A stretch of 64,000 nt of DNA from Candidatus Saccharimonadales bacterium. Its GTDB lineage: Bacteria; Patescibacteriota; Saccharimonadia; Saccharimonadales; JBGSXW01. The DNA is taken from assembly GCA_041751215.1 (NCBI GenBank), contig JBGSXW010000002.1, positions 286,591 through 350,590 of the forward strand. The letters are read 5' to 3'. Below are positions 4,667 through 35,184 of this stretch, piece after piece. The translations under genes and the position numbers were made by a program. Below the pieces are notes generated by a model. It searched no databases, was not told the origin of the DNA, and saw only the letters and a program-made list of their open reading frames with translations. How positions within the stretch are numbered: position 1 is the stretch's first letter; each line of letters opens with the position of its first letter.

Positions 4667-4677
4667 AGGCAAAAACA

Positions 4678-4730
4678 AAGAAAAAAGGACCCTGTTGCGC
4701 TTTTGATTGATGTATCAAAAACTAGGGTCC
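4678..4730 (-). terminator. Intrinsic terminator of ORF 4786-5553
   Basis: On the minus strand: GGACCCT, a 30-nt AT-rich loop, AGGGTCC, then TTTTTTCTTTG. It is homologous to the terminator at 25741-25791. Confidence 0.6.
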
Positions 4731-4785
4731 TTGCCGAAGGAGATCATCGTTGTCCCTTCGGGGTCTCATGTGGAGGCGTGGAGGC

Positions 4786-5553
4786 TCAGCCCTCGAACAT
4801 GTGCGGCTTGCCGCGAGGTTCGTCTGGTGTGTCGATTTTTTCGCCGCGGCGAAAACCCCAGGGCCCACCGGCCAGCCAAACCTTTCTCGGCTGGCTCTCC
4901 ACCTCGATTGGCGGGTCCTTGGCGAAGTCGAACTGATCGACCTCGTCGTCGGGGAAGCCCGCAGTATTCCCGCAGCTGGGGCAGGCGTAGCCGGAGCCGG
5001 CCTTGACCATGGGAACGCCGCAGGTCATGCACATCGGTGCCTCCGATGCCAGCGTGGTCGGGTCGTCGTCGACGGCACCGACAGGCGGGTTGGCACCGAT
5101 CGCTTCCGAGAAGTCGTCGAAGACCTTGTCGGGGACGTCGGCGTCCAGAGCCTCGGGGCCACGGAGCATCCGATCGACTTCGGCTTCGGCGCCCTGGAGG
5201 GGCACGACGTCGCGGTCGACATCGGTCTCGGACGTCATCACGGCACGGACGCGGAAGCTGATGTTGCCCGGGATGACCTTGTCACGCAGGCAGTCAGCAA
5301 CCTTGACGAGCAGCGGTGGTCCGATCTTGTTCGCGTCGGCGGGACACGACGCTGTGGGCCAACCGACCACCACGGTGATCTGGCGATCGCCGCTGTCGTA
5401 GGGACCAGCCTCGCTGAACGTTGTGTCGCACACGGATCGATCGAGCTGCTCCATCACGATCTTGGGAAGCTCGTTGGCCAGACGGTCAAGGTCCATGGAG
5501 CTGAGGACCGAACCGCGAAAGTTCGGGTAGTAGTGAACGTGGACCGACAACAT
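4786..5553 (-). CDS. Hypothetical acidic protein with a C-terminal-half zinc ribbon (GC-rich island)
   Basis: 255 aa with RBS AAAGGAG and the ribbon CMTCGVPMVKAGSGYACPSCG. About 63-70% G+C by hand count of two lines. The overlapping long ORFs on both strands are shadows. Confidence 0.7.
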   Translation of the reverse strand: MLSVHVHYYPNFRGSVLSSMDLDRLANELPKIVMEQLDRSVCDTTFSEAGPYDSGDRQITVVVGWPTASCPADANKIGPPLLVKVADCLRDKVIPGNISFRVRAVMTSETDVDRDVVPLQGAEAEVDRMLRGPEALDADVPDKVFDDFSEAIGANPPVGAVDDDPTTLASEAPMCMTCGVPMVKAGSGYACPSCGNTAGFPDDEVDQFDFAKDPPIEVESQPRKVWLAGGPWGFRRGEKIDTPDEPRGKPHMFEG

Positions 5554-5574
5554 GCCGATCTCCTTTCATGAGAG

Positions 5575-5655
5575 GTGCAATTGCACGGATGTGCAATCTG
5601 TTCTTCACACATTGCGAAGTTTTTCGATTATACCACAAGGTTAGTGTAAAATCAA
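5575..5655 (-). promoter_or_regulatory. Promoter plus operator-like palindromes for ORF 4786-5553
   Basis: Minus strand TTGATT (5655-5650), 17 nt, TATAAT (5632-5627). The 5' UTR carries GTGCAATTGCAC-ggat-GTGCAAT (5575-5597). Confidence 0.5.
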
Positions 5656-8873: not shown

Positions 8874-9209
8874 TAAGGTTGGGGCACCTTGACCACTTTT
8901 CTCTCCGAGAAAATGTCTAAACGCCCCACAACCAGAGTGCTTAATTATCGATTGAGCCCTGCGGTTGGAGGAATGACGGAATAAGATGTAAAAAGACGCA
9001 ATCATTTCGCCCGCATCGACTAAAACCTCTGAACTTGTAAGGACAGAACATGGCGTGACGAGGACTGTTCATACGTACTCCGCAGTAACCCAAGTTCTGT
9101 GCGAAACAAGTTCATGAGTGTTTTAGTAGCAGCGGGGTAGTTTTGAGCCACTTTATGAAAAGTGGCAATACCCCCGTCGCGGGAGCGACAAGGCAAATCT
9201 GAAAATGCC

Positions 9210-18040: not shown

Positions 18041-19042
18041 CTAAATCAGATCAAAGGGCAGATTAAACCCGGGGTCAAGCAATTCTGCGTCAATAGCAAC
18101 GACCGCTAGAACTGCTCCTAAGATAATGAGTATTAAAGCCGTAACGGCCGGGCTCATAGCTTTTTGTCGGTGGTGCCCAGCCTTGATTGGCAAGTGATAC
18201 TGCTTGGTGTCGTAAATTTTAGTTTGCTCGACGGCTTCCGCTTTAGATTTGGCTGCTGCATCAGTTGCCACTTTTGTCTTAAGGTCTCCGGTGACGGCAT
18301 CGAGTTTTCGTGAGGTCTCGTTTGAATCAGCAGGCTTGGCTTCTGCCTCTTTTGCGGAGTCAGTTTCTTGGGCTTCAGTTGACGAGTCCGCAGTTGCGGC
18401 GGCTGGAGCAGGCTCTTTATCTTCTTTTTTATCGTCCTCTGGTTGAACCGAAGCCTCAACCTCTGGTTTTTTATTAACCGTAACAGTTACTGCTTCTTCG
18501 TCCTTGACTTCATTGTCTGAAGGCGGATCGCTAGGCTCTGGCTCCGAAGCTTCGGCTGCTTTTGATTGTTCTTCGGTCTGCGGTTTAACTCCGCTGTTTA
18601 TCGGTTCGATGGTTTTAGCGCTGCGTTTAACCATTATGGTTTCGCCCTTGTCTTCTTCTGCGTCCTCAGACTTTACTTCTGGCGCCGAAAGATTCGGTCG
18701 CTGCTTGATGGTTGGAGATTTATCTTCGCTAGCTGTTTTATTAACTTTGACCGTTACCGACTCGGATTCGTCGCTAGTTTCGTTATCTGTTGTCGTTTTG
18801 GCGCTTTTGGGCGGTTTTGGGGCATCGGCTTTAACATCTTTTTTAGAAGATTTCGGTTTAGCAGGGGCGTTTTCTGTGGCGTCAACATCGGCTTTGGCGT
18901 CTCGTTCGGTTTTTTGTCGTTTGAGCGTAGCTTGAATCTGGGCCTCGATTTCCGCCTCTAGATCAGCTGTGCCCATAGATTCATCGGCTTCGATTACAAT
19001 CGGATCGCTTTTGCTGTTTTCTTCTGTGTCATCTTTAGCCAT
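18041..19042 (-). CDS. Low-complexity acidic/lysine-rich protein with C-terminal TM anchor
   Basis: 333 aa rich in K/E/D/S/T/A, with a terminal helix AVTALILIILGAVLAVVAI. The start overlaps the tpiA end. Confidence 0.55.
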   Translation of the reverse strand: MAKDDTEENSKSDPIVIEADESMGTADLEAEIEAQIQATLKRQKTERDAKADVDATENAPAKPKSSKKDVKADAPKPPKSAKTTTDNETSDESESVTVKVNKTASEDKSPTIKQRPNLSAPEVKSEDAEEDKGETIMVKRSAKTIEPINSGVKPQTEEQSKAAEASEPEPSDPPSDNEVKDEEAVTVTVNKKPEVEASVQPEDDKKEDKEPAPAAATADSSTEAQETDSAKEAEAKPADSNETSRKLDAVTGDLKTKVATDAAAKSKAEAVEQTKIYDTKQYHLPIKAGHHRQKAMSPAVTALILIILGAVLAVVAIDAELLDPGFNLPFDLI

Positions 19043-21069: not shown

Positions 21070-22503
21070 CTACTCTAGCTTTCTGACTTTTATGGTATCC
21101 ATTCCTTCAAATTGCTCGGGGTGCATGTCGATTGCGGTAACAATTACGTCTTTGCTCTTAAACACCGCGTGCGAGCGCAGCCAGTCGGTTAGTCGCTGAG
21201 CCGAGGCTTCGTTTTCTGGGCGTATAAACCCTTTGGTTCCGTAAACTATGGCTAATTGTTGAGCCGTCATGGCATGAGAAGTTACAGCGATAATCGGTAC
21301 GTTCGGACGATGCATGGCAACGCTTTTTGTGGTTCTCCCACTCCTGGTAATCGTAACGATGGCTTTAGCGCCCAGTCGCCCAGCCAAAGTTATGACGCTA
21401 GAGGAAATCGCGGCCTGAACCGAAGGTGTAGCTTGATTGAAAAAGACTGGCTTGAGCGGTGAGTTTTCCTGGGTGTAGAGAATGATTCGCTTCATAACCT
21501 CAACTGCCTCTAGCGGATGTTTGCCGCTGGCGGTCTCATCGCTGAGCATTACTGTGTCGGCGCCAACAATCACCGCCGTGGCGACGTCTGATACTTCGGC
21601 ACGCGTGGGCTCGAGCTCATCGGTCATAGAAGCCAACATCTGTGTAGCGACGATGCTGATCTTTCCTTTTTCTAGACATTTACCAATAATGGCTCGCTGC
21701 AGCACCGGAACGGCCTCTGTTAGGGTTTCTTGAGCTAAATCGCCACGAGCAATCATTACGGCATCGCTCTCATCAATAATTTCGTCTAGGTGCTCGGTTG
21801 CCGCCTTGGTCTCAATTTTTGCGATCACTAAAGACTTGGACCCATAAAGTGATAGCAGGCGTTTAAGTTTTTTGACATCCTCGCCGGTTTGCACAAACGA
21901 CAATGCCACGTAGTCAACATTATGCTCGGCGCCAAAAACTATATCTTCGCGGTCTTTCTTGGTAATAATATCGCCGCCTAGATCGGTGTCGGGAAGATTG
22001 ATGCCCTTACGACGAGTCAGCACACCGTCGTTATTGGCCTTGATATGAACTTTGCCGTCTTGCACACTAGTGACTTCGGTTTTTAGTCGGCCATCGGAAA
22101 TCAACAACCGCTCCCCGCGTTTAACCTTTTTACTGAGGTCGTACTGCGTAGGAATCAGTCCAGTCGTTTGATAGTCAGTCTTATACTTAAGAACTAATTC
22201 TTGACCTTTTTTAACCGGAATAATGTCGTCAAAATCACCAAGTCGCATTTTTGGACCCTGAAGATCCTGAATAATTGCCACCGGCTTATCTAACTCAACA
22301 CTAGCTTGTCGAATCTTCTTAATGCGATCAAGATGCTCCTCAAAGTTGCCGTGCGAGAAGTTAAGTCTAAAGCCATTAACTCCAGCTTTTAACAGATCTC
22401 GAATCATCTCGAATTCACTCGTCGAGGGCCCGAGCGTAGCAATCATTTTTGTCCGCTTAAAGTTTTTGAGCGGAATCTTTGGTGGCTGATCTGTCTGTAC
22501 CAT
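21070..22503 (-). CDS. pyk: Pyruvate kinase
   Basis: KMIATLGPS, NFSHG, MIARGDL. The start is placed at ATG 22503 (MVQTDQ...). The track ORF extends to 22557, so the start is uncertain. Confidence 0.9.
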   Translation of the reverse strand: MVQTDQPPKIPLKNFKRTKMIATLGPSTSEFEMIRDLLKAGVNGFRLNFSHGNFEEHLDRIKKIRQASVELDKPVAIIQDLQGPKMRLGDFDDIIPVKKGQELVLKYKTDYQTTGLIPTQYDLSKKVKRGERLLISDGRLKTEVTSVQDGKVHIKANNDGVLTRRKGINLPDTDLGGDIITKKDREDIVFGAEHNVDYVALSFVQTGEDVKKLKRLLSLYGSKSLVIAKIETKAATEHLDEIIDESDAVMIARGDLAQETLTEAVPVLQRAIIGKCLEKGKISIVATQMLASMTDELEPTRAEVSDVATAVIVGADTVMLSDETASGKHPLEAVEVMKRIILYTQENSPLKPVFFNQATPSVQAAISSSVITLAGRLGAKAIVTITRSGRTTKSVAMHRPNVPIIAVTSHAMTAQQLAIVYGTKGFIRPENEASAQRLTDWLRSHAVFKSKDVIVTAIDMHPEQFEGMDTIKVRKLE

Positions 22504-22691
22504 TACTAACAGTGTAGCAAAGCACAAACGCTTTGGCACCGTCATTCCTGGGCGCAAGACTCAGTGAAATCATAGTTCGCTTCATGGTCCGAGGAACAAC
22601 GCCACCGCGTTACAGTTGAATGTTTTTAGTTTTAATGATGTAATACGCACATTCCGTGTTCCTTTACAACTATTCCGAAAGCAGGTGCAAT

Positions 22692-23342
22692 ATGAAGTAC
22701 CAATCTTTGACTCTCTACCGATTCATCCAGTTCATCAGCCGGTGTTACTGCTACCTGACTTACGAATGCCACCTGATCGGCTCGGCGAATCTGCCCTCAG
22801 ACAGGCCCTTCGTGCTGGCGTCGAACCACCGCGACAACCGTGACACCTGGGTGCTCGGAGCTCTGCCGCTGCGACCGATGTGGTATCTCGCAAAGCACCA
22901 GCTCTGGACCAAGGAGTTTCTGTGGGCCGGCTACTGGTTCTTCAACTTCATGGGGACGCTGCGTGTCGAACGTGGCAATGTCACCCAAGAGCTGTACGAC
23001 CAGTGCAAGACCATCCTGCAGTGGCAGCGACAGCCGGTGGCGCTTTACCCAGAGGGTCGTCGCCGCACAGGGCAAATGATCGAAAGCATCAAGCCTGGCG
23101 CAGTCCGCATCGCGCTCGATAGCAACGTGCCACTGATCCCGATGGCTATCCACGGCACCGAAAAGGTCTTGCGCTCCAAAAAGTTCAGGACTCCGCTCGT
23201 CGTCGTGATTGGCCGTCCAGTCAAGCTAGACGAAGATGCGACCGAAGAAGAAAACGTCGAGAGGCTGCGCCTAGCCATGCAGGAGGTGTTAGACCAAGCA
23301 ATCGATGCGTCACAGGCGGTCAAGCTCGCTCGCAGCCACTAG
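22692..23342 (+). CDS. plsC: 1-acyl-sn-glycerol-3-phosphate acyltransferase-like (PlsC family), GC-rich island
   Basis: HX4D motif NHRDNRD and YPEGRR. The start is moved to ATG 22692, with AGGTG upstream. The segment is GC-rich. Confidence 0.8.
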   Translation: MKYQSLTLYRFIQFISRCYCYLTYECHLIGSANLPSDRPFVLASNHRDNRDTWVLGALPLRPMWYLAKHQLWTKEFLWAGYWFFNFMGTLRVERGNVTQELYDQCKTILQWQRQPVALYPEGRRRTGQMIESIKPGAVRIALDSNVPLIPMAIHGTEKVLRSKKFRTPLVVVIGRPVKLDEDATEEENVERLRLAMQEVLDQAIDASQAVKLARSH

Positions 23343-23371
23343 CCGGCATCGGAATTAGGGAACGCGGACCA

Positions 23372-23418
23372 GGGGTCTGACTCTTACACTTATCGTGTAG
23401 TTTCAGGCCCCTTTTCCT
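23372..23418 (+). terminator. Hairpin between convergent GC-rich ORFs
   Basis: AGGGGTCTGA, a 22-nt loop, TCAGGCCCCT (one mismatch), then TTTTCC. Confidence 0.5.
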
Positions 23419-23594
23419 TGTCTACAGTTTCGTCCTGGCGCCTGCCCGCCGCAGCGAATGCGGAGGCTGGGGACTCGTCAGAAGAATTACACAATTCCTG
23501 ACTGTAGAGGGCCGAGCGGAGAGATGATTATTGATCTGTTAAGAAGCGTTGGCTTCTTGATCTACATCTCTCACGCCGGCCGCAAGGTGGTGGA

Positions 23595-24059
23595 TCAGGG
23601 CGTCAAGGCCTCGATCATCTCGCATTCACGAGCGTCTTGCAAAGCATCACGCTCGGCATCGATGGTCTTGAGCTCCGGAACCCGCGTGAACATGATGTTC
23701 GTGATCTGGCAGGCTAGGAAATAGCCGAGGAACTCCCTCCACGTGTCGTCGCCGTCGAGCTGTTCGATGACGTCCAAGCCTTTGAACTCCATCGGCCCGT
23801 CGGTGGTGCAGACGACGTAGAAGAGGAGCTGGACGAGCTCCGGATCGTTGAAGCGCTCCTTCATGACGTGATTGACCATGCGAACTGCACCGTAGCTGAA
23901 AACCATGTGCGTGCACACGTCCCAGTCCCCAGGTCCGACCTTGCCGGTGCCGTGGCAGAGGAAGCAGTTATCCTGCTCCATTTTTCCGCTGGCTCGGTAC
24001 ATCGCTGCCATCTCCCAGATGAACCGATCGAATGTGCTAGCCGAAATCTCCGTGGTCAT
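23595..24059 (-). CDS. Hypothetical protein (GC-rich island)
   Basis: 154 aa with strong RBS AAGGGAGG and a single CxxCxGxG-like motif CFLCHGTG. The opposite-strand ORFs are shadows. Confidence 0.65.
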   Translation of the reverse strand: MTTEISASTFDRFIWEMAAMYRASGKMEQDNCFLCHGTGKVGPGDWDVCTHMVFSYGAVRMVNHVMKERFNDPELVQLLFYVVCTTDGPMEFKGLDVIEQLDGDDTWREFLGYFLACQITNIMFTRVPELKTIDAERDALQDARECEMIEALTP

Positions 24060-24101
24060 GATGACCTCCCTTTGGTTGTGAACGGAACTCGGATCGGCAG
24101 T

Positions 24102-24130
24102 ATTATAACATGGTTTTGTCCTCTTGTCAC
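24102..24130 (-). promoter_or_regulatory. Sigma70-like promoter of ORF 23595-24059
   Basis: Minus strand GTGACA (24130-24125), 17 nt, TATAAT (24107-24102). Confidence 0.5.
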
Positions 24131-24184
24131 TAGAGTCTTTATGCGCTTTACCTTAAGGCCCTCATCTGTTAAACTCACTTCGCT

Positions 24185-24259
24185 GGCCCCTTCGTCTAAT
24201 GGTTAGGACACCAGGTTTTCATCCTGGCAATAGGAGTTCGATTCTCCTAGGGGTCACCA
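24185..24259 (+). tRNA. tRNA-Glu (anticodon TTC), CCA encoded
   Basis: Cloverleaf read by eye: acceptor GGCCCCT/AGGGGTC, anticodon loop TTTTCAT, T-arm GGAG-TTCGATT-CTCC. Confidence 0.9.
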
Positions 24260-24420
24260 ACAAAAAGCCTCGCCCTTGTGGTGAGGCTTTTTGTTGGTAG
24301 CTTTATGCGAATCGAACTTCGTAGCGCGTAGCGCGGAGTTCGCTATTCAAGCGAGCCCGCAGATGCTCGCATCGAGGACGAGCGAAGAATATATCATATA
24401 TTCTCCTATTCCCTGTTGTG
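24260..24420 (+). repeat. tRNA-trailing GC-rich module, Glu copy (split pseudo-T-arm)
   Basis: CCA-sequestering hairpin, then H1 GAACT-tcgta-GCGC-gta-GCGC-gg-AGTTC, then GGAGTTCG (the tRNA-Glu T-stem 5' strand plus TTCG), then a 57-nt conserved insert, then ATTCTCCTA (the rest of the tRNA-Glu T-arm). Confidence 0.75.
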
Positions 24421-24427
24421 GATACGG

Positions 24428-25042
24428 CTATTCCGCCTTAGTTATGCGAACGCCAACAACCTTCCACTCATCAAAAGGCAGATTGCCCGAACCGATACCA
24501 TCCTTATGAGCTACGACAACCTCTACATTCATCGCATCACCTTGAAAGGTGCTTTTGTAGACAATCGTGTGTGGGCCCCCACCTGGTGTAAATTCGAATT
24601 TAGCCAAACCGGTGCCTGGGTCGACGTTTTGCCAAAGTTCTTCTCTGCCAGAAAACGCCTGAGAGCGTAGAGTGGGGCTAATCGTAAAGTGTGTTATGCC
24701 AGCAGCTTCGTCGTATTGCTCATTCTTGGCATAATTCACAAACTCATCGGCCTTTTTGCGAGCCGCACACTCATCGTCTTTATCACCGGATGTTACAGCG
24801 CAAGATGATGAAACGCCCTTATCACCTTTTAGGAAGAAGGCATATGCCCCGTAGGCCAAGCCTGCAAATACAACCAAGCCTGCAATTAAAAGAATCAGTT
24901 TCTTTGGTGCTTTTGATGGCCTGGGAGTTGCTGTCGGTTGAGGTGCAACCGGTGCAACAACTTCTGCGGGTGCGCTGTTACTTTGATTTGTCACACTAGG
25001 AGTACTTACGTCTTTGGTTTGATCTTCTGGTTTTGTATTCAT
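24428..25042 (-). CDS. Membrane-anchored hypothetical protein (Pro/Thr-rich N-terminus, one TM, extracytoplasmic domain)
   Basis: 204 aa with the same architecture as ORF 44431-45015. Confidence 0.65.
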   Translation of the reverse strand: MNTKPEDQTKDVSTPSVTNQSNSAPAEVVAPVAPQPTATPRPSKAPKKLILLIAGLVVFAGLAYGAYAFFLKGDKGVSSSCAVTSGDKDDECAARKKADEFVNYAKNEQYDEAAGITHFTISPTLRSQAFSGREELWQNVDPGTGLAKFEFTPGGGPHTIVYKSTFQGDAMNVEVVVAHKDGIGSGNLPFDEWKVVGVRITKAE

Positions 25043-25135
25043 TCTTCGATTATAGGCGGTCCGCTGGGATTATCACAAGCACTACATGCTCCATTCGTAG
25101 AAAAAACACTGGAAAGCAATCACATGGAATCCCCA

Positions 25136-25165
25136 TTGGACTTTTTTAATGTTATGTGCTATAAT
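25136..25165 (+). promoter_or_regulatory. Sigma70-like promoter of ORF 25235-25672
   Basis: TTGGAC (25136-25141), 18 nt, TATAAT (25160-25165). The 5' UTR carries the hairpin TCAGCC-gata-GGCTGA. Confidence 0.55.
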
Positions 25166-25234
25166 AGCCCCCGTTACTTCAACATGAGGTAGCTCAGCCG
25201 ATAGGCTGATTCTTCGAGAGAAGGGAACTTTTCC

Positions 25235-25672
25235 ATGCCTAAGGTCTTCCTCCAAGGGGACGCCATCTGGGCCGTGCCGCCGTCGCGCGACATACTCACC
25301 GACCAACAGCAATTCACCTACGAGCTGGCCCAAGAGCTCCAGAGCATCTGCGCCTCGGCCATGACGAGATCGGGCTTCGATACCCGAGGGAACCAGGTCG
25401 TCGTGCGCTGCCTGGCACCTCTGCCGCTCGTGATCAACGGGGACAACCTCGAGATCACGTTCGCACCGAACTTCACGCCCGAGCGGCAGGCTCAGGAAGA
25501 AGCGATCCGGGATCACCTGATCGATCTGGTTACGGAGTTCACGGGGGACTGGGTCATTTCCACACTCGGTGAGGCTGGCACGTGGCCGACCATCGCGTAC
25601 GACATCGACTTCACCATGGGCATCGGTGGTCTCACGAACACGGATGGCCTCCTCAAGTCCACCTGGCCCTGA
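25235..25672 (+). CDS. Hypothetical protein (GC-rich island)
   Basis: 145 aa starting MPKVFLQG, with RBS GAAGGGA. The antisense ORF 25082-25516 is a shadow. Confidence 0.65.
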   Translation: MPKVFLQGDAIWAVPPSRDILTDQQQFTYELAQELQSICASAMTRSGFDTRGNQVVVRCLAPLPLVINGDNLEITFAPNFTPERQAQEEAIRDHLIDLVTEFTGDWVISTLGEAGTWPTIAYDIDFTMGIGGLTNTDGLLKSTWP

Positions 25673-25740
25673 TCACCTCCTCGAAGGGAGCATTCGGCTC
25701 CAACCCACATGACCTGTCGCTGACAGCATGTGGGACATCA

Positions 25741-25791
25741 GGACCCCCAATTTTATGCAATGCATCAAATCTCGGGGTCCTTTTTTCTTTG
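25741..25791 (+). terminator. Intrinsic terminator of ORF 25235-25672
   Basis: GGACCCC, a 26-nt AT-rich loop, GGGGTCC, then TTTTTTCTTTG. The last 16 nt are identical to the terminator tail at 4676-4691 (minus strand). Confidence 0.65.
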
Positions 25792-25798
25792 GCAAATT

Positions 25799-27262
25799 TT
25801 ACGCAGCTCTCACTCTCGGTATCTGATACCAATCTGTTACATAGGCTGGAGACTGATGATCGCGGTGAGAATGCCAGGTTCGACGATCTCCAGCATCCTC
25901 TCTGGCATGATGAACCGCCGCCGGACCGTAGCGCTTGTTGATAGCATCGACCGTTTGCATTAACAGATCTTGGCGTTTTAAATACGGCTCCGTCGCTGGC
26001 TCTAAAACAGACAATTGTTTAGCACTCTCTGGCACCAAGTGGCTTAAAATAACTCCGGCTTTCTTATAGCTAAAGTCAGGGTCATAGACTTGCTGCATGG
26101 CCGCCAAGGCTGCCTTAATAATTTCGCCCGTATCAGAGGTGGGAATCGGCAGTTTGACCTTATGATAAATATAACTATGTCCACTGGGAATATTGCGTTT
26201 TAAATAAACGCTGACTTCCCAGGTTAGTTCGTGGTTGCGCCGTAATTTAGCGGCCGTTCGGGTTGCAAAATTAGCAATTGCGGCCTCGATCTCGTTTAGA
26301 GCCCTGAGGCTGCTGCCAAACATCCGAGTGGCCGAAATGCTTTGTTGCGGATCATCTGTTTGATCTAAGGGAATACAACTCTCCCCCCTTAGCTCTTTGA
26401 TGGTTTTAAGACCCCTGATGGTTAAGTTCTTAAGGATCCAGCCATCTGGCATCTGAATCAGGTCATAAGCGGTCTTTATGCCCATCCCCTGTAGGCGCGG
26501 CGCTGTGCGCCAGCCTATTCCCCATACATCTTCAACTGGTGTTTGCCGCAGACTATCCTCTGTTAGCTTGGGTTTGTTAACCAAGCTTAGTCCGGCCCCA
26601 AGACTTTGATCTTTTTTGCTTCGAGCAACTGCTAACTTAGCTAGCGTTTTAGTTGGAGCCACCCCTACAGATACCGATATTCCGGTGTGTTTTTCTACCG
26701 TGGCCGCCACCTCTAGTGCCCATCTTTTATAGTCCTCTATGGGTAGCGTGCTGACCTCTAGAAAGGACTCGTCGACCGAATAAACCTCAATGTCGGGTGA
26801 AAACTGTTTGAGAATGGTTGTGATTCGCTGAGACATGTTGCCGTACAGTGCGAAGTTAGCCGAGAAAATCTGAGCTTGATGGGCTTTTAATAGTTCCTTG
26901 TGCTTAAAGTATGGAGCGGCCATAGGAATGCCCAAAGCCTTAATCTCGTTCGACCTAGCGATGATGCAGCCGTCGTTATTGGACAAGACGGCCACTGGCT
27001 TGTCTTTGAGATCGGGCCTAAAGACCCGCTCACAAGAGGCAAAGAAATTATTACAGTCAATCAGAGCGAACAAGGGCATCGTTTTGCCCGGCTTACTGGC
27101 AGAGCCAGCAACTCTGGCAAAACTTGGAGCGCTGAGCTTTGTTCCAGCCTCCGCTACTCCTCTACCGTACTCTGCGTACGCCTTCGTCTGTTGCTCGGCT
27201 GCGCCTCGCTCAGCATCTCCATGCCCGTGCTCGCTAGGGATAGAACCCGGTGGTTGCTTCAT
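25799..27262 (-). CDS. umuC: Y-family translesion DNA polymerase (UmuC-like)
   Basis: ALIDCNNFFASCE, SVDESF and the C-terminus SPAYVTDWYQIPRVRA. ATGA overlap with the upstream umuD-like gene. The 61-aa N-terminal extension may not be translated; the alternative start is ATG 27079. Confidence 0.9.
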   Translation of the reverse strand: MKQPPGSIPSEHGHGDAERGAAEQQTKAYAEYGRGVAEAGTKLSAPSFARVAGSASKPGKTMPLFALIDCNNFFASCERVFRPDLKDKPVAVLSNNDGCIIARSNEIKALGIPMAAPYFKHKELLKAHQAQIFSANFALYGNMSQRITTILKQFSPDIEVYSVDESFLEVSTLPIEDYKRWALEVAATVEKHTGISVSVGVAPTKTLAKLAVARSKKDQSLGAGLSLVNKPKLTEDSLRQTPVEDVWGIGWRTAPRLQGMGIKTAYDLIQMPDGWILKNLTIRGLKTIKELRGESCIPLDQTDDPQQSISATRMFGSSLRALNEIEAAIANFATRTAAKLRRNHELTWEVSVYLKRNIPSGHSYIYHKVKLPIPTSDTGEIIKAALAAMQQVYDPDFSYKKAGVILSHLVPESAKQLSVLEPATEPYLKRQDLLMQTVDAINKRYGPAAVHHAREDAGDRRTWHSHRDHQSPAYVTDWYQIPRVRAA

Positions 27263-27648
27263 CTGTGCGAACCCTTATGGGAGTGTAGATTATAGGTGAT
27301 TACACCCCATATCTGGAGGTCTTGACCGCTAATGGTATCGGCTAGGACCTCCCCCTGTGAGCTCAGCAGAGCCCGCACAGAGCCCTTTACTCCCACCTGC
27401 CCTATCTTGAACTCTCCGTTGTGCCAAGCAACTACTAGGTCTCCTGGTTGCGGATCCAGTGATTTATCGATAATTAACAGATCATTTTTAAAAATGCCCC
27501 AGATCTGAATCTGCCCACTAACTCTCATGAAGAAGGTGCTAGCAGGACGCTTAATTACTAGGTCATGAAGGCTTAGACCAGCTAAATTAGCCTCTTCTGC
27601 AGGATTTGGGAAGCCGGCTTTTACAGGAGTCTGCTTCACGGCATCCAT
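27259..27648 (-). CDS. umuD: UmuD/LexA-C-terminal-like (S24 fold) protein, apparently lacking the Ser/Lys dyad
   Basis: 129 aa that aligns by eye with E. coli UmuD from VQCGFPSPA onward (here VKAGFPNPA). GDSM is replaced by GQIQ, and FTVKKL by FKIGQV. RBS AAGAGGAGG. Confidence 0.75.
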   Translation of the reverse strand: MDAVKQTPVKAGFPNPAEEANLAGLSLHDLVIKRPASTFFMRVSGQIQIWGIFKNDLLIIDKSLDPQPGDLVVAWHNGEFKIGQVGVKGSVRALLSSQGEVLADTISGQDLQIWGVITYNLHSHKGSHR

Positions 27649-27839
27649 TTCGACCCAAAACCTCCTCTTTTGACTGCAAACAGCTTTCCGCTCGTCAACG
27701 TATCCCTTGGGATATGCTTCCTTGTGGCAAGCTGTTTTCGTGCAAAAGATCTATCTTTTGGCTTCGAAAGCGAACCGCAAAGCAGGCTCCATGGCTGTTG
27801 ATAAGAGGTAGCTACCGGTGGTATATGCCTTTTGGGCAT
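27636..27839 (-). CDS. Small very basic ORF upstream of and overlapping umuD-like
   Basis: 67 aa with RBS AAGGAG 6 nt before the ATG and a TATAAT about 35 nt further upstream. Internal repeat KRHIPPVATS / RKHIPRDTLTS. Confidence 0.35.
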   Translation of the reverse strand: MPKRHIPPVATSYQQPWSLLCGSLSKPKDRSFARKQLATRKHIPRDTLTSGKLFAVKRGGFGSKWMP

Positions 27840-27880
27840 TATTTACTCCTTGGTAGCTCATTGAACCTACATTATAGCAG

Positions 27881-29185
27881 CTAAGCTGCAACGTTTACGC
27901 TAAACTGCTCGCCCGCTCTAACGTTATCTAGAGATTCTCGGCTACGGCCGGTGTCTAAGGCGATTTCATCTATTAGGGTGTTTATTCGATCATCCTCTAG
28001 GCCAAGCTCCCGAAGCTCACTCCAAAGATATCCACCTTCTGGTATGGTTACTTGTTGCACCTCTGGCGCGGGCATTACAGGGGTGGCAGGCGGCGCAACC
28101 GGCCATGCTTGCTCAGTGGCAGGAGTAGGTTCTGAGGGCACTAAATTATCGCCCAGATCATTCAGAGCTTCTGACTCCTCAACCGCCGGGACCAAGCTGA
28201 TCTCTGGTGCACGAGCCTTTACTTCATTGAACATCTCACTAATGGCGCTGGGGCTCGTGTTGGGGCTATAGCCTTTTGCAAACTTATACATTTGCAGGGC
28301 GCCGTAGCCAAGTGCCAACACTCCAACCGCAGCTGCTCCAACAAAGTTACGCTTACCTTTTTGCTCCCAGGTAGTTTGACGCTCAACCCATCTGTTAATT
28401 GCTCCGCCAGCCACCTCGGTTGCGCGGTCTGCAGTGTTTCGATAAGTCATACCGGCCGTGTAAGAAAGTGTGGATACAGACTCTTTAGCTGATTTAACCC
28501 TTCTGAGGGCGCGGCTAACAAGCGTATTGCGTCTAAAAGCTGGCTGATATTTATCGGCGTCATCTTTTGCGAGCTTTGGGATACCAAGGTAAGTTACCAG
28601 ATGTTCTTTTCGGTTATGTAGCGCAACGGCCTCTGTTTTTGGCCCTCGCTCCGGATGAAACTTGTACTTAGTGACTGCATCAAAAGCCCTCAATAAACCG
28701 CGCCGAGTCTCGATTGCTCGGGGTGAGCTGTCCTGTGGAAAGCGCAATTTTGGCTCTGGTTTAGTGTCAAAAATTTCGTGATTTGCTTTAGCCAATAGTT
28801 CGTCTACAGGGGTGGTTGAATGAGCCAATTGTCGGGCACGCTGCAGCACTTGACCTTCAAATTCTTCAAGTTCTACCTCTGTTGGAGGCAAAAACTGCTG
28901 TCCAACTTCAACTGGGGAGATAGTTCCGGGGTCGCGTTCGAGTTGCAGTGGCCCCCTATTAGGATCAACTTCGATCGCTGGCTTGCGCAAACGAACGGGC
29001 CTGTGCGGTAAGGCTGCTTCTCCAGCAATATCAGAGCGACGAATAAAATCTAAGTAAATTCCGGGGTCGCTTACTCCATCAGTAAGATCAATAACTTCCT
29101 CAGGAAACAATCCTTCGTACTCATCTGATTCTGTAGATCTGCCTTGGTCTATGGTCATATTTTCACTATGGCATAAAATCGACAT
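27881..29185 (-). CDS. Hypothetical membrane protein with C-terminal LysM-like segment
   Basis: 434 aa with one TM helix (FVGAAAVGVLALGYGALQMY). C-terminus VTIPEGGYLWSEL...GEQFSVNV. Confidence 0.6.
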   Translation of the reverse strand: MSILCHSENMTIDQGRSTESDEYEGLFPEEVIDLTDGVSDPGIYLDFIRRSDIAGEAALPHRPVRLRKPAIEVDPNRGPLQLERDPGTISPVEVGQQFLPPTEVELEEFEGQVLQRARQLAHSTTPVDELLAKANHEIFDTKPEPKLRFPQDSSPRAIETRRGLLRAFDAVTKYKFHPERGPKTEAVALHNRKEHLVTYLGIPKLAKDDADKYQPAFRRNTLVSRALRRVKSAKESVSTLSYTAGMTYRNTADRATEVAGGAINRWVERQTTWEQKGKRNFVGAAAVGVLALGYGALQMYKFAKGYSPNTSPSAISEMFNEVKARAPEISLVPAVEESEALNDLGDNLVPSEPTPATEQAWPVAPPATPVMPAPEVQQVTIPEGGYLWSELRELGLEDDRINTLIDEIALDTGRSRESLDNVRAGEQFSVNVAA

Positions 29186-29821
29186 AAATTCTAGTGTTTA
29201 ATGTGGCGCTGGCCATCTATAAACATTGTATAATCATGGTGCTAAAGCTATTGACATAAACATTATAAAGTGGTAGTATTCATAAGTCATCGTTTTGCGG
29301 CATGTGAGGTGGAGAGCTCGGAGACGAGCAACCTACACGCCCTGGCGGTTGGGCACATCAACATTTGTATATCTGTCCCTATCTCAAATCGAGCAATCGA
29401 TAGGAGTAGGGATTTTTATATGCAAACGGTGTGCTAGCCATTTTGGGCGGCCTTCTATGAGGCCGGAAACCTATCTAAACAGGTGGGCCAAAGCGATTGG
29501 GTACGTTAACAGTTAAGTCAAATCATTAGTCTATATAAATCTTCAGAGTCTGAGGGCAGGCTGGTGCGTATGCAGACCATATATGCCGCAATCTTATGGT
29601 TCGCGTACACACCACTCTGCTCTCAGGTGTTCGTCAGTTGGCGAACGCATTCTGAAGCAGTAAATGACTACTATACACTCAACGCAAAGGCAGTTTTGCA
29701 GCTCGGCTTCAGAAGCAGCACTTTGGTTACTAGTTTAATTATTAGTCGCTAAAGTGCTGTTTCTGGACAAAGCATGCAAAGCAATTCCCATCCCGTCCGC
29801 TCGAGACCCTAAGGAGGTCCC

Positions 29822-30889
29822 ATGAGCAAGCCAAAGACAAGCAAGTGGAAGCGAGGTGTTTACTCCAGCCTGGCAATCATTGTCCTCGGCAGCCTCCTTT
29901 CGGTGGCTGTGCTCTCCCATTCGGGAGACGGCAATGCACAGGCAGAAGAGGAGGCACCGGCAACTGCAGCACCGCCGACCACGGAGGCGCCGACCAGTGC
30001 CACCACCGAGGAACCTGTTCCGGAGTGCACCACGTGGACGATCGAGGAGATCGACGACGAGGACACCCACCAGGTCATCCCCGGGGGTCTCGAGGCCATT
30101 CGCGCCGCCGAGACCGAGGAGGAGGCACGCGAGGCCATCGACGTGTACATGCGAGAGATTCGGAGAGATCCGGATGTCTTCGTGGGCAACATGGCGTACT
30201 TCTTCGAGCCCGAGCAGATCATCGCTGTCAGCGAGGTCTTCGACGAGCACGGGTGCGCCACGCCAGCCGCGGACAACATGTACGTGCAGGTGTCCGTCAA
30301 GCTCGGTTTGAGCTGGATGGCTCCCGATGAGGCCCCAGAAGTAGGGACCAATTCGGGTGTGAACGACGACGGCGACGTCGTGGTGGCTGAGCAGCCCGGG
30401 ATCACCGGTGACCGTGCGGCCATCAAGATCGTTCTGCCTGATGGCACGGAGCTGTGGATCATGGCCCGTTGCGGCAACATCGTGTCGGAGAATCCTCCGC
30501 CACTCCCCCCAGGGGAAACAGATGAGCCGCCGACAGGTGGTCCGCCGTCACCTCCGCCGCCTCCGCCGCCGCCACCTCCGCCGCCACCTCCGGGTGACGA
30601 GCCGAAGTGCTTCGACGAGAACGGCAACCCCGTGTACGACGCGGCCTTCTGTGGCACTCCCGAAGGCGGACCCGAATACATCCCGCCCACAGAGGATCTG
30701 CCACCCGTCAACACCGGCCCCACACCAGGTGCCCCTGAGACGCCTCCACCGGTATCCGTACCGGAAGAGACGACCCCAGAGGAAGACGACGCGGTCGCCA
30801 ACCCCGAGACTCCCCCGGAGATCGAGGACGACCCCCCCGCGCCGCCGCCCCCACCTGGTGAGGATCCGCCTCCGCCGCCGCCCCCCTGA
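29822..30889 (+). CDS. Secreted/anchored proline-rich acidic protein (GC-rich island)
   Basis: 355 aa with RBS AAGGAGG, an N-terminal signal-anchor, poly-Pro runs (PPSPPPPPPPPPPPPPPGDEP) and a C-terminal PPPPPPP. The opposite-strand Gly-rich ORF is a shadow. Confidence 0.7.
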   Translation: MSKPKTSKWKRGVYSSLAIIVLGSLLSVAVLSHSGDGNAQAEEEAPATAAPPTTEAPTSATTEEPVPECTTWTIEEIDDEDTHQVIPGGLEAIRAAETEEEAREAIDVYMREIRRDPDVFVGNMAYFFEPEQIIAVSEVFDEHGCATPAADNMYVQVSVKLGLSWMAPDEAPEVGTNSGVNDDGDVVVAEQPGITGDRAAIKIVLPDGTELWIMARCGNIVSENPPPLPPGETDEPPTGGPPSPPPPPPPPPPPPPPGDEPKCFDENGNPVYDAAFCGTPEGGPEYIPPTEDLPPVNTGPTPGAPETPPPVSVPEETTPEEDDAVANPETPPEIEDDPPAPPPPPGEDPPPPPPP

Positions 30890-31177
30890 AGTACCTACTT
30901 CTTCGCATCCGCGGAGAAGCTGTCAGCGTTGGGTTGAGAGTACGCCTCGGCGTATGAGTAGTCCCCTGGAGGTGTGTGTTGTGTTTCGCCAATGGCGAAT
31001 GTCTTTAATGACAAACATAACACCACCTCCAGTTCTCACCCCTTTTAATAATTTTGTATCTACTAATGATTTGACTTGACTGAGCCCGTTAGCGCACATT
31101 AACAATCCGGTACCGTAAAGTGAAAATTTAAGTTAGTGTGTGCTATTTATTAAGTACGTTTTAAAGAAGGAGGAGAT

Positions 31178-32629
31178 ATGCGTAAATTTACGAATCTCAT
31201 TAAACGATTCCCTCGTATGTTTACTAGCTTCCTTACTCTTGCAATGGTTGGTGTCATTGGCGTTAATGCCTTTGCTGCTCCAGCTGTTCGTATCGAGAGT
31301 AACCTAGCAGTTGCAAACGTAACCCAGGGTGACACAGAGTACAAATCTAGTGTCAATGCCGGTTACGACGAAGTGATTCGTGTTAAGTTGTGGTATCACA
31401 ACATGGAAGATGAAGATAGTGGTAAGGTTGCTAACAACCTAACCGCCAAGATCAACGCGCCAACCCAACCAGGTAAAACGCAGGTGATCCGTGGAACTAT
31501 CTCAGCCGATAACGGCAATACAGTTAATACCTCAGCTACCGTCAATCTTGACCGTAGCGATGCTTACCTGGAATACATCCCAGGTAGTGCTCAATGGCGT
31601 CACAACGCTGGCACCAATGAAAATGTAAACTATGTTACTACTCAAATTAGTGACAATGTTGCAACCAGTGGTGCTGGTTTACGACTCGAAAACGCAAAGC
31701 CTTGTTTCAACTTTGAAGCTAGCGTTTACGTTCTATATCGAGTTCGTGTTCCTGCAATTGAGTTCAACAAGCAGGTTTCTACTCCCGGCAACCCTGATGG
31801 TTGGATGGAAGAAGTAACTATTGAACCTGGTGACCGAGTTAAATTCCTATTTAGCTTGCGTAACCGTGGCAACGACCAGCTCGACAATGTTATTGTCGGC
31901 GACGTTATGCCAGAAGGTCTTACCTATACGCCAGGAACGCTTCACCTAACCAATGGTAACCACCCCAATGGTACTAAGCTTTCTAGCGACAACATTGCCA
32001 GTGGCGGTGTGAACTTACGTTCATTCGCTCCTGGTGGCTGGGCATACGTAACATTTGAAGCAACTGCTGATGAAGCCGAAGCTTTTGAATGTGGCGTAAC
32101 TAGCCTAACAAACACCGGTGTGGTCACATCAGACCAGACCGACAACCAAACTGACGATGCAGACATCGACATCAACCGCGAATGTATCCCTGAGGGAGAC
32201 TTCAAGTGTGATGTTCTAAATGCTAAGCGACTACATGGCCGAAACTACGAGTTTACCGCTCGAGCCGACGCTAATGACGCTACCATTGAGTCATACGTAT
32301 TCCAGTTTGGTGATGGCGAAAGCCAAGTCGTTGAAAGTGATGGCACTCAAGTAGTTGTCAATCACCGATACGCTAACCCAGGCACATATAACGCCCGAGT
32401 TACTGTTCGTGCCAATGTTGATGGGGAAACCCAAACCGACACTGGTGCTGAATGTGCAGTAAAGATTGATACCGACAAGCCGGCCGTACAACCGCCTGCT
32501 AAGGTATTGCCTGAGACTGGTCTAACCAGTGTCATTGGCGCAATCTTCGGTACCGGAAGCCTAGCAGCTGCCGTTCGCGGATGGTTTATTAGCCGCCGCT
32601 CACTCAAGAATACCCTGCTCGACGTTTAA
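31178..32629 (+). CDS. LPXTG-anchored surface protein (DUF11-like and PKD-like repeats)
   Basis: Signal peptide, a PKD-like segment FGDGESQ...YANPGTYNARVTV, and a C-terminal sorting signal of LPETG, a TM helix and RRS. Backbone (about 40% GC) composition. Confidence 0.8.
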   Translation: MRKFTNLIKRFPRMFTSFLTLAMVGVIGVNAFAAPAVRIESNLAVANVTQGDTEYKSSVNAGYDEVIRVKLWYHNMEDEDSGKVANNLTAKINAPTQPGKTQVIRGTISADNGNTVNTSATVNLDRSDAYLEYIPGSAQWRHNAGTNENVNYVTTQISDNVATSGAGLRLENAKPCFNFEASVYVLYRVRVPAIEFNKQVSTPGNPDGWMEEVTIEPGDRVKFLFSLRNRGNDQLDNVIVGDVMPEGLTYTPGTLHLTNGNHPNGTKLSSDNIASGGVNLRSFAPGGWAYVTFEATADEAEAFECGVTSLTNTGVVTSDQTDNQTDDADIDINRECIPEGDFKCDVLNAKRLHGRNYEFTARADANDATIESYVFQFGDGESQVVESDGTQVVVNHRYANPGTYNARVTVRANVDGETQTDTGAECAVKIDTDKPAVQPPAKVLPETGLTSVIGAIFGTGSLAAAVRGWFISRRSLKNTLLDV

Positions 32630-32847: not shown

Positions 32848-35184
32848 CTACCAGTTGTCGCGGTCTCCGCACGTCATAGCCGATATTTCTTGTAGCGGTC
32901 TCGCTTCCGAGAACACGCTCCAAGACACGTCGCCTGTGCCGTACCACTCACCTTGCATGACATACCAACGGTTGTTTCGATGCTCTACGGAGTAGAACTC
33001 ATCACGTCCGTCGGCATTCGCGTCACACTCAACCGCGAACAGTGGTGGAGCAATACCATTCCAGATATCCCAGGTGGTTCCGTTTACTGCGTTGATGCGA
33101 CGAATCGAGCCGCCTCCGTCAAGGTGAACCTTAACTTCATCAACGCCGTTGCCGTCCCGGTCTCCGCACGTCATAGCAGTTATGCCCCGCCCATCAAAGT
33201 CAGCAGAAAATTGCCTCCACTGTCCATTCTGAGCGTTGGGCCGCTTGCCCTGCATGACGTACCATCGGTTGTTGCGAAACTCCGCCGAGTAGATCTCGTC
33301 TTGGTTGTCGCCGTTTACATCACACTCCACAAGGAAGTGTGACTTGGCGAGTCCCGAAAACATAACCCACGTCTGTCCGGTCTGAGAATTGATTCGGCGA
33401 ATTGATCCTCCGGTTAGGTGGACCTTCACTTCATCGTTTCCGTTACCGTCACGGTCGCCACAACTGATGGCATTGATAGTGTTTCCATCGAAGTCGGCTG
33501 AAAAAACACTCCAACCGCGCTCCGACCCTGATTTGCCCCACGTGCCTTGCATGACGTACCAACGATTGTTGCGAAACTCCGCCGAATAAAGCTCGGTTTC
33601 GCCGTCACCGTCAGTGTCACACTCAACACGACCCTGGCCCGCCATGATGCCCTCCCACATTTCCCACGTCTGACCCGTTGCTGGGTTGATTCGGTATGTC
33701 GATCCATTGCGGTGGATCTTAACCTCCTCGTGACGATACGGATTTGGAGTGGAACTCTGACCGCAATTACCGCTCACCAGCGGGTGAGTTGTAAAACGAT
33801 CACCACTTGGCTTCACCGGCCCCCAGTTCAGGGAACCGCCAGTCAGAACCAAAGGCTTCATGACGCCGCCAACTAGCTGCTCGTAGTGCAGGTGAGGCCC
33901 GGTTGTAAAGCCGGTCTCGCCAACACGACCGATGATCTCACCCTGCCGAACATGCCGGTTCGATGAAAGCAGCCCTGCAGCTTGAAGGTGAGCCATTCGG
34001 TGCATGCGGCCAGTTGCGTCGATTACCTCAACGTAGTGACCGTAGCCGTTTGGATCCCACTTAACCACTGCGTGCCCCGTTGCCGGAGCTGCCACCAACG
34101 TGCCCTTGTCTACAGGCAAGTCAATGGCATTGCTGTGGTCGTAGGATCCACCCCCAGGCAGCCCGATTGAGCCGTAGGTCGAAGCATACGGCGAGACCTC
34201 CCCACAACTCAGCGGGAGATTGCTGTAAACATTCGGCCCCGACGGAACCCCGATGGCCGGTAGCGGGTCCGAAAACCCGCCGCCAATGCCAAAGCTATTC
34301 CGGCGCTGGAAGAGCCGAAGCGCGATGGCCTGATGGCCACGCGCATTGGGATGCCACCATTGATCGGTGTCTCCGGTTGGAAAACCATTGGCAAAGCCTG
34401 TTGGATTGATCCAGTCGTCAAGCGGTCCGCAAACCTCGTGATTGGCGAATAGATCCATGACCCCAACGTAGGACAGTCTGTAGGCATTCGACAGATTCAA
34501 CTCCGCCACTAGGCCTGCCTGCATGTCACTCGCAGACTCACTCAACGCTCTGATGCGCGCACCCGACGGATAATTCCCGTCTTCGAGCGTGTAAATTGGA
34601 TTCCCGTGGCAGTTATCCAGCAGGTATGGATATCCAACCAACACGATTTGAGCATTCGGGAACTCATTCAGGATGCGCACCAGCTGATCGCGCGTCCGAC
34701 TGCGGATTGTGCCGATCAGAGCCTCTGCCTGATTAAGTCGAGCGTCACACACCGACCGTATATTGAAAATCAGGCAATAAGTCACGATCTCCTTGAAGCC
34801 CGCATCGTTGCCTCCAACCGTCAACAACACAATGTCGGCAGCACTGCGCGTAGATGAGTTGAATAGCGAGATCTGCTGGGGGATGTTCGACGTGGTTGCT
34901 CCACTACAGGCTGTAACGCCAACAGTGGTTGACCACCCTGCTGTACGCAGTAGGTCGCTGAACTCATACGCATAGCTGGCATGTGACTCATAGCAGCCGG
35001 GCACGTTTGGGTCATAGCTCCCAGCACCATTCCCGGCCGTAAACGAATCACCGAGCGCAACGATGTCAACGTGCTCCTTCGCTGCTTCAGCATCGCTGGC
35101 TGACCCAGCGAGACTCAACAACGAGCACATCACACTCACGACCACAAAGGTCGCGATTTGCCGGAAATTCCGGTGCTTTTTCAT
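32848..35184 (-). CDS. Secreted multidomain protein: SGNH/GDSL hydrolase + M23 peptidase + three 99-aa Ca-binding-type (FG-GAP/VCBS-like) repeats (GC-rich island)
   Basis: 778 aa with a signal peptide, the GDS block VALGDSFTAGNG, the M23 motif HYVEV...GETGFTTGPHLHYEQ, and repeats CD.DGDG..E.YSAEFRNNRWYVMQG / CGDRDGNG.DEVKVH. One sampled line is 35/60 G+C. Confidence 0.85.
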   Translation of the reverse strand: MKKHRNFRQIATFVVVSVMCSLLSLAGSASDAEAAKEHVDIVALGDSFTAGNGAGSYDPNVPGCYESHASYAYEFSDLLRTAGWSTTVGVTACSGATTSNIPQQISLFNSSTRSAADIVLLTVGGNDAGFKEIVTYCLIFNIRSVCDARLNQAEALIGTIRSRTRDQLVRILNEFPNAQIVLVGYPYLLDNCHGNPIYTLEDGNYPSGARIRALSESASDMQAGLVAELNLSNAYRLSYVGVMDLFANHEVCGPLDDWINPTGFANGFPTGDTDQWWHPNARGHQAIALRLFQRRNSFGIGGGFSDPLPAIGVPSGPNVYSNLPLSCGEVSPYASTYGSIGLPGGGSYDHSNAIDLPVDKGTLVAAPATGHAVVKWDPNGYGHYVEVIDATGRMHRMAHLQAAGLLSSNRHVRQGEIIGRVGETGFTTGPHLHYEQLVGGVMKPLVLTGGSLNWGPVKPSGDRFTTHPLVSGNCGQSSTPNPYRHEEVKIHRNGSTYRINPATGQTWEMWEGIMAGQGRVECDTDGDGETELYSAEFRNNRWYVMQGTWGKSGSERGWSVFSADFDGNTINAISCGDRDGNGNDEVKVHLTGGSIRRINSQTGQTWVMFSGLAKSHFLVECDVNGDNQDEIYSAEFRNNRWYVMQGKRPNAQNGQWRQFSADFDGRGITAMTCGDRDGNGVDEVKVHLDGGGSIRRINAVNGTTWDIWNGIAPPLFAVECDANADGRDEFYSVEHRNNRWYVMQGEWYGTGDVSWSVFSEARPLQEISAMTCGDRDNW

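Follow-up and report, generated by a model that had tools for sequence, protein, structure and literature searches.

A conserved 3′-end module, predicted to fold as an interrupted terminator, behind two unrelated GC3-rich cassettes in a Saccharimonadia chromosome

Two GC-rich orphan ORFs lying 20 kb apart on opposite strands of one chromosome are trailed by 3′ ends that resemble each other, and the question is what the two ends share and how they came to share it. The window (the whole stretch of DNA that was analysed, 64,000 nucleotides) had been given a sequence-only reading, in which the two 3′ UTRs were aligned and a shared module on otherwise different cargo was taken to suggest a common vehicle, either cassette-like mobilisation or one donor replicon. 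Gene regulation and accessory-gene flux in Patescibacteria (CPR) are almost unexplored. The explanation favoured here, at a probability of about 0.65, is that a lineage-specific 3′-end module terminates the mRNA of small self-contained cassettes and probably makes it more stable, and that the two ORFs share this chassis.

The backbone of the window is ~47% GC (0.47-0.50) and carries the atp operon, metG, pcrA, pyk, pgk, tpi, ksgA, umuDC, murA, folC and five tRNAs. Among named IscS homologs the nearest (55-56% identity) belong to "Candidatus Saccharibacteria" and "Saccharimonadales", and the window was therefore taken to be part of a poorly sampled Saccharimonadia chromosome. The two ORFs, 25235-25672 (plus strand; ORF A) and 4786-5553 (minus strand; ORF B), were found where they had been described, with a GC of 0.62-0.64 and a GC3 of 0.81-0.82 (0.40-0.50 in the backbone). 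Each forms a sharp GC peak of 0.61-0.69, and the high GC ends at the CDS boundaries. The parts of the two cassettes were assigned as follows.

25137..25165, plus strand: promoter A, TGGACT-17-TATAAT with an extended -10 TG (10/12 matches with TG in a consensus scan)
25166..25234, plus strand: 5′ UTR A, with hairpin CAGCC/GGCTG, a CTTC spacer and SD-like GAGAGAAGGGAA
25235..25672, plus strand: ORF A, 145 aa, GC3 0.82, an orphan family with an invariant N-terminal Met-Pro
25682..25734, plus strand: proximal 3′ UTR A, with the CGAAGGGA motif and hairpins GGAGC/GCTCC (25687-25701) and CCCACATG/CATGTGGG (25704-25734)
25741..25792, plus strand: two-tier terminator A, GGACCCC, 26 nt with an inner hairpin, GGGGTCC, then U6 CUUUGG
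5627..5655, minus strand: promoter B, TTGATT-17-TATAAT with an extended -10 TG (10/12 matches with TG in a consensus scan)
5554..5626, minus strand: 5′ UTR B, with hairpin TTGCAC/GTGCAA, a CCTCTC spacer and SD AAAGGAG, read from the sequence
4786..5553, minus strand: ORF B, 255 aa, GC3 0.81, an orphan with a C-terminal CxxC...CxxC zinc ribbon
4734..4761, minus strand: hairpin 1 of B, CCGAAGGGA...TCTCCTTCGG, from RNAfold
4676..4732, minus strand: two-tier terminator B, AAGGACCCT, 30 nt with an inner hairpin, AGGGTCCTT, then a U-run and CUUUG

ORF A had no match in Pfam, PHROG or PDB. ORF B had zero homologs among 5.8e9 clusters and a weak match to Zn_ribbon_TiaS, and the AlphaFold models of both proteins were at a pLDDT of ~50. 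BLASTP, profile comparison and nucleotide alignment found no relatedness between A and B in the coding and 5′ regions, and the earlier statement to this effect is upheld. The two leaders have no sequence similarity. The proteins of A, B and a third GC-rich ORF (D; 23595-24059, minus strand) showed no mutual relatedness.

Identity between the two 3′ ends is concentrated at their close. The 16-mer GGTCCTTTTTTCTTTG, which had been reported as common to both, occurs exactly twice in the window, at 25776-25791 (plus) and 4676-4691 (minus); the shuffle expectation in the window scan, with two or fewer mismatches permitted, was 0.08. It proved to be part of a 17-mer, GGGTCCTTTTTTCTTTG, which closes both 3′ UTRs (25775-25791, plus, behind ORF A; 4676-4692, minus, behind ORF B) and whose local-alignment score was reached in none of 2000 shuffles. 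Complementary arms precede it, GGACCCC/GGGGTCC in A and AAGGACCCT/AGGGTCCTT in B, and enclose interiors of 26 nt (A) and 30 nt (B) with a GC of 0.31-0.33 and a small hairpin of their own. The alignment that had been proposed over the whole 3′ UTR holds for the arms, the interior and the 17-mer. Further upstream it does not: the motifs are not collinear (CCTCC-CGAAGGGA-CACATGA in A, CCTCC-CACATGA-CGAAGGGA in B), and the upstream halves are not above chance when aligned alone (89/2000 shuffles). The CGAAGGGA motif was still considered relevant, since a hairpin with this motif as its 5′ arm is found again in the wider family described below. The two 3′ ends are homologous rather than alike by chance.

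The sequence-only reading was to fail if the module was the common terminator of many backbone genes. Over the ~74 kb examined (the window and 9.5 kb past its left end, in a genome of at least 419 kb) there were two copies only, both behind GC3-rich orphan ORFs. A strict motif was also searched across GTDB representative genomes, IMG/VR and JGI metagenomes. It gave a few dozen loci, among them several duplicate copies of a site. All were ordinary terminators with a continuous stem, from unrelated taxa, and two copies within 64 kb are therefore above background. It is highly improbable that the module is the ordinary terminator type of this genome, or that two strong terminators are similar by chance or convergence. 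The form GGACCC...GGGTCC-T6-CTTT has arisen independently as a terminator in many phyla, long terminal hairpins follow all seven GC3-rich islands of the window and some backbone genes, and most of the genome lies outside the DNA covered, all of which speak for such an origin. Against it stand the two copies where 0.08 are expected and none in the additional 9.5 kb, the different form of backbone terminators (such as that after tRNA-Glu, 24256-24298, and that at 49309-49355), the 16 GGGTCC sites in the window where ~31 are expected, and the retention of the core in remote family members from other genomes.

RNAfold gave -48.3 kcal/mol for the 3′ UTR of A (z = -5.1) and -34.5 kcal/mol for that of B (z = -3.3). 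The predicted architecture is the same in both: one or more GC-rich hairpins, then an interrupted ("two-tier") hairpin, then U6 CUUUG. In the two-tier hairpin an outer helix of 7 bp (A) or 9 bp (B) surrounds an internal loop and an AU-rich inner stem, with energies of -16.7 (A) and -18.0 (B) kcal/mol. A consensus scanner for loops of 3-8 nt overlooked both terminators, which were read as interrupted stems with apical loops of 3 and 6 nt and with internal loops. T6 lies directly 3′ of GGGGTCC (A) or AGGGTCC (B), in keeping with a U-tract within 0-2 nt, and is followed by CTTTG. On the sense strand, 68 nt (A) or 53 nt (B) separate the stop codon from the start of the hairpin, and the module is unidirectional, with no U-run on the opposite strand. 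A stable GC-rich hairpin, a U-tract and a position downstream of the stop codon are what is looked for in an intrinsic (Rho-independent) terminator, and the module is predicted to fold as an interrupted one behind a GC-rich hairpin.

In these respects, and in its sense-strand, unidirectional placement, it is like intrinsic terminators that carry a stabilising hairpin in the 3′ UTR. It is unlike them in that the stem is interrupted, the 7-9 bp outer helix closing an AT-richer interior of 26-60 nt with a hairpin of its own, and in that the core and the tail after the U-tract (CUUUGG) are conserved over unrelated cargo and between genomes whose proteins are 26-34% identical. Such sequence conservation of helix core and tail is not expected of a generic terminator. 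Identity with a known RNA family was rejected: Rfam matched neither module, at the gathering threshold or at E <= 5, in scans of 4300-9300 and 22000-31500. The same scan gave tRNA-Glu, a hammerhead elsewhere, and weak matches at chance level outside the modules.

The most economical function would be termination together with protection of the 3′ end and insulation of the neighbours. Terminator B lies 240 nt upstream of the atp operon, whose own promoter-like TGcTATACT remains, and would stop the cassette promoter from reading into that operon. Terminator A ends 7 nt short of the stop codon of the convergent umuC and would stop antisense reading into it.

At 25671-25690 (plus) the stop codon of ORF A was also seen to run into GATCACCTCCT and then into SD-like CGAAGGGAG. 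The first of these is the same sequence as the anti-Shine-Dalgarno at the 3′ end of bacterial 16S rRNA; the second resembles TCGAGAGAAGGGAAC in the leader of cassette A. The anti-SD mimic GATCACCTCCT is not kept in the closest ortholog, at the locus L003.

An exhaustive profile search of 1.84e9 representative proteins gave five relatives of ORF A in total. The closest of these, P0002 at L003 (from another sample), which was also the sole homolog of ORF A among the 5.8e9 clusters, is 63% identical at the amino-acid level and is likewise convergent with umuC, which is itself 77% identical. Differences between ORF A and P0002 fall 35/33/62 by codon position and the lone indel is in frame, and ORF A is therefore a real, fast-evolving gene. 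Both UTRs at L003 are more conserved than the CDS. The promoter region aligns from ~-35 onward, the hairpin of the 5′ UTR is swapped for a different self-complementary sequence (CCG..CGG), the proximal 3′ UTR is ~90% identical, and the terminator reads GGACCC...GGGTCC TTTTTTCTTTT. In this syntenic ortholog the module is more conserved than the coding sequence. To the left the similarity ends where synteny breaks, immediately upstream of the promoter, and cassette A predates the split from the L003 lineage.

The other four homologs are remote (26-34% identity). Their ORFs are GC-rich, at 0.56-0.63, where the backbones have 45-54% GC; each stands in a separate neighbourhood behind a promoter of its own, and the neighbouring proteins have no match in the window or in L019, which covers DNA past the window's left end. 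Three of the four (L050, L052 and L053) share the architecture of hairpin 1, two-tier hairpin and U-rich tail. Hairpin 1 is CCCGGAAGGGC/GCCCTTCCGGG in L053 and CCCGGAGGGG/CCCCTCCGGG in L050; in L052 it has another sequence, with a CCAGGG/CCCTGG helix. The outer helices are AGGACCT/GGGTCCT with tail TTGTTTTC (L050), AGACCCG/CGGGTCT with tail TTTTTCTTTCC (L052) and GCGACCT/GGGTCGC with tail TTTTTCTTTGG (L053). L047, the fourth, departs from this pattern: its outer helix is CGAGCCCG/CGGGCTCG and its U-run is weak. The 3′ UTR of B (stop codon, ~24 nt, hairpin 1 as CCGAAGGGA/TCTCCTTCGG, 1-2 nt, terminator) resembles those of L053 and L050 in layout more than the 3′ UTR of A does.

When the outer helix was compared over the six related sequences, 85% of cells were paired, four pairs (GACC/GGUC) were invariant and three had compensatory double changes. 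The covariation score was 0.319 (0.169 in shuffles, 2/500 reaching it) and clearly above that of slid registers. Because the sample is small, with six sequences and independent evidence from three lineages, the covariation is supportive rather than conclusive.

The family (25235-25672, P0002, P0125-P0127 and P0130) was seen to keep, besides the N-terminal Met-Pro, residues W12, P78, G129, G131 and W144. A catalytic N-terminal proline, as in tautomerases, is conceivable from this pattern; the profile search found no support for it in Pfam or PDB.

From these comparisons the module would consist of a GC-rich hairpin with a purine-rich 5′ arm of the CGAAGGGA type, followed by an interrupted Rho-independent terminator whose outer helix keeps GACC/GGUC as an invariant core, with U5-6 CUUUG(G) closing it. 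Each cassette would carry a strong extended -10 promoter, a leader with a hairpin and SD, a GC3-rich orphan ORF and this module. The module would belong to the cassette type and not to the backbone, travelling with the ORF-A family and here joined also to the unrelated ORF B. Its presence behind the family elsewhere and behind ORF B here argues that A and B share a chassis. ORF B may have gained it by duplication or recombination of a 3′ end, or both cassettes may have come by a common insertion route.

It is quite unlikely that A and B are instead very old paralogs, a whole cassette having been duplicated and its proteins having diverged while the 3′ module was retained, in which case the cargo would not be different at all. 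Among members of the ORF-A family the module has already outlived the similarity of the proteins, and a profile alignment pairs residues 23-38 of B (RLANELPKIVMEQLDR) with the equivalent first helix of the family (..alPeIv..) at similar positions. That segment has, however, an E value of 0.14 and a probability of 0.4%. BLASTP of A against B gives nothing, B is 110 aa longer and has the zinc ribbon, and it is without the family hallmarks of N-terminal Met-Pro and C-terminal W; the AF2 models of the two are too poor for comparison. The observation of a shared module on different cargo is supported.

The position of the cassettes was compared with relatives in which the same core genes are found. 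In L045, 221 nt separate tatD-x-x-iscS from the orthologous atp operon; in the window the corresponding gap is 1216 nt long and contains cassette B. In L044, metG-tatD and alaS-pilM are adjacent, and here island C and a 1.4 kb GC-rich stretch intervene. A and B are lineage-specific insertions between core genes. The intergenic DNA of the L045 empty site and of the window is too diverged for the insertion boundaries to be aligned. Seven inserted GC3-rich units (GC3 of 0.61-0.84, 0.40-0.50 in the backbone) lie at 4.7-35.2 kb, and none at 35-64 kb.

4786-5553, 8461-8873, 22656-23342, 23595-24059, 25235-25672, 29822-30889 and 32848-35184: the GC3-rich units, between core genes

A TGnTATAAT promoter precedes each of units A, B, C and D. 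The terminal hairpins of the islands are multi-tier. When all seven were compared pairwise for shared 5′ modules or 3′ ends, only the pair of A and B was significant, and the other five are without the module.

The common vehicle that had been proposed for the two genes fared differently in its two parts: a shared module on different cargo stood, and a single high-GC donor replicon did not, there being no relative of ORF A in a high-GC genome among 1.84e9 proteins. It is very unlikely that both ORFs came from one such replicon (for example an actinobacterial host, its phage or its plasmid) with their native 3′ ends. A GC3 of ~0.8 in both ORFs and the GC-rich hairpins of the proximal 3′ UTR would suit such an origin. 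So would the growth of cultivated Saccharibacteria on Actinobacteria and their natural competence, as described in two reports (PMC10633639, PMC10187176). Against it, all five ORF-A family members are in backbones of 45-54% GC, with no member in a high-GC genome among the 1.84e9 proteins. B is without any homolog among the 5.8e9 clusters, and no phage or viral-contig relatives of A or B were found. The excess of GC does not extend past the CDS; the inner hairpin, which is AT-rich, the long U-tract and the promoters look recipient-like; and cassette A is older than the split from the L003 lineage.

A phage or plasmid as vehicle was likewise rejected. No phage relatives of A, B or D were found, the sole phage match being a 31-aa zinc-ribbon stretch; IMG/VR viral contigs held no relatives of A or B; and a plasmid search run with two other GC-rich islands gave remote matches only, of <31% identity. 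No integrase, transposase, relaxase or recombinase was present among the window ORFs scanned, and no target-site duplication or attC-like core site was found. With no high-GC donor, phage, plasmid or recombinase found, the donor-replicon reading is therefore unsupported, and cassette mobilisation is plausible but unproven. The varied neighbourhoods of the ORF-A family and the inserted state of the cassettes favour mobilisation. Since the module also follows the ORF-A family elsewhere, it looks like a reusable cassette part and not like the relic of a high-GC donor.

Known mobile and repeated units differ from the two cassettes in various ways. Phage morons are autonomous units of promoter, ORF and terminator with deviant base composition (the Hendrix/Juhala concept). 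A and B are like them in having a single ORF with its own promoter and terminator and a deviant GC3 (0.81-0.82 against 0.40-0.50) between syntenic genes. They are unlike them in standing beside core genes of a Saccharibacteria chromosome (iscS/atp, umuC) and in that several units share a homologous 3′ module. Their surroundings are cellular (iscS, the atp operon, umuDC, pyk, pgk and tpi) and not those of a phage or prophage, with no PHROG or phage matches. Integron cassettes resemble A and B in that unrelated ORFs are each trailed by a conserved imperfect palindrome, attC. Unlike such cassettes, A and B lack RYYYAAC/GTTRRRY core sites and have neither an integrase nor an arrangement in an array. 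They are scattered on both strands, have their own promoters and end in a U-tract. The arms are AGGACCC and GGGTCCT, with no GTTRRRY at the 3′ boundary, and no recombinase was among the window ORFs scanned; the copies are 20 kb apart on opposite strands.

REP/BIME, Neisseria DUS pairs and Correia elements are repeated palindromes able to terminate transcription or to make transcripts more stable. They share with the module the sequence-conserved inverted repeats at 3′ ends. The module differs from them in having only two copies, both with GC3-rich orphan ORFs, and no over-represented oligomer: none of the 6-10-mers is over-represented in the 64-kb window, and GGGTCC is not enriched there. A DNA-uptake sequence was rejected on the same grounds (no over-represented oligomer, GGGTCC at 16 against ~31 expected, 64 kb sampled).

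An unlikely alternative is that the module acts at the DNA level, or as a single-strand hairpin, as the recombination or mobilisation signal of a new cassette system, with GACC/GGTC as the recognition site and termination as a secondary effect. Several observations would fit: at 26-34% protein identity core and tail have changed less than the coding sequence, the neighbourhood of ORF A differs in each genome while Saccharibacteria synteny is otherwise conserved, seven GC3-rich islands lie among core genes within 35 kb, and the A/L003 similarity begins at a synteny break above the promoter. Against such a signal are the lack of an integrase, transposase or relaxase in the window and of a target-site duplication, the absence of attC-type R/L core sites, and the other five islands being without the module, with two copies in ~74 kb.

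The cassette reading can be extended, tentatively and as a rather doubtful proposal, to a hitherto undescribed class of self-contained GC3-rich orphan-gene cassettes on a common chassis, hosted by Saccharibacteria and perhaps by further lower-GC lineages, that would enter between core genes, move from genome to genome by some route and actively hold their GC ~15 points above that of the host without amelioration. It is no less speculative that, within such a class, a hammerhead ribozyme stands in once for the module and the module is the common hallmark and possibly a mobilisation or processing signal.

The hammerhead itself is a candidate of type III at 23422-23507 (minus), matching Rfam RF00008 with 42 bits (gathering threshold 48.5) and E = 1.3e-6. 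Its core (CUGAnGA, GAAA and the GUC cleavage site) is intact, and stem II has a 34-nt insert. It lies 88 nt past the stop codon of the GC-rich ORF D (23595-24059, minus), just behind a two-tier hairpin and where A and B have the U-tract, and by its position may process the 3′ end of cassette D.

Under the favoured reading, the module is a real, homologous, sequence-conserved terminator common to two unrelated GC3-rich cassettes and a small gene family. A portable 3′ module with matching promoters would mark lineage-specific cassettes in Saccharibacteria genomes, and would give expression parts for these newly tractable, naturally competent bacteria. Should the module prove to be just a terminator passed down with a fast-evolving family, the finding is a modest one, and it is still a non-coding 3′ end that outlasts its protein. 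A gene family that keeps a GC3 of ~0.6-0.84 in genomes of 45-54% GC, with no high-GC donor among the 1.84e9 proteins, does not fit the usual 'transfer then amelioration'.

Further features were noted in and beside the window. In L019, 1.4 kb at 56-59% GC lie between alaS and pilM (8650-10035, ~5-6.5 kb past the window's left end). This stretch has no ORF >120 aa and no Rfam match and is bracketed by the inverted repeat TGACAAGGAATTGA / TCAATTCCTTGTCA; L044 has a 47-nt spacer there. From its sequence it is a candidate for a large structured RNA or a decayed island. A candidate small RNA at 29251-29418 (plus) has the strong promoter TTGACA-17-TAGTAT with TG and, ~100 nt later, the terminator TCCCTA...TAGGGA TTTTT; it contains no ORF and had no Rfam match.

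Inverted repeats of 30 nt (29510-29539 / 31053-31082, 87% complementary) bracket the proline-rich, GC-rich ORF 29822-30889 along with a 280-nt leader and a long 3′ hairpin. The arrangement is like the ends of a non-autonomous element, and a target duplication is not obvious. ORF 18041-19042 (minus; 333 aa, no Pfam match) lies where the AT skew is extreme (-0.44 to -0.49 on the plus strand), which suggests a low-complexity, A-rich coding strand. At 32939-33628 (minus), three 297-nt direct repeats, 69-77% identical, lie within a moderately GC-rich 778-aa protein with GDSL lipase, M23 peptidase and FG-GAP parts, and match the FG-GAP repeats of that protein.
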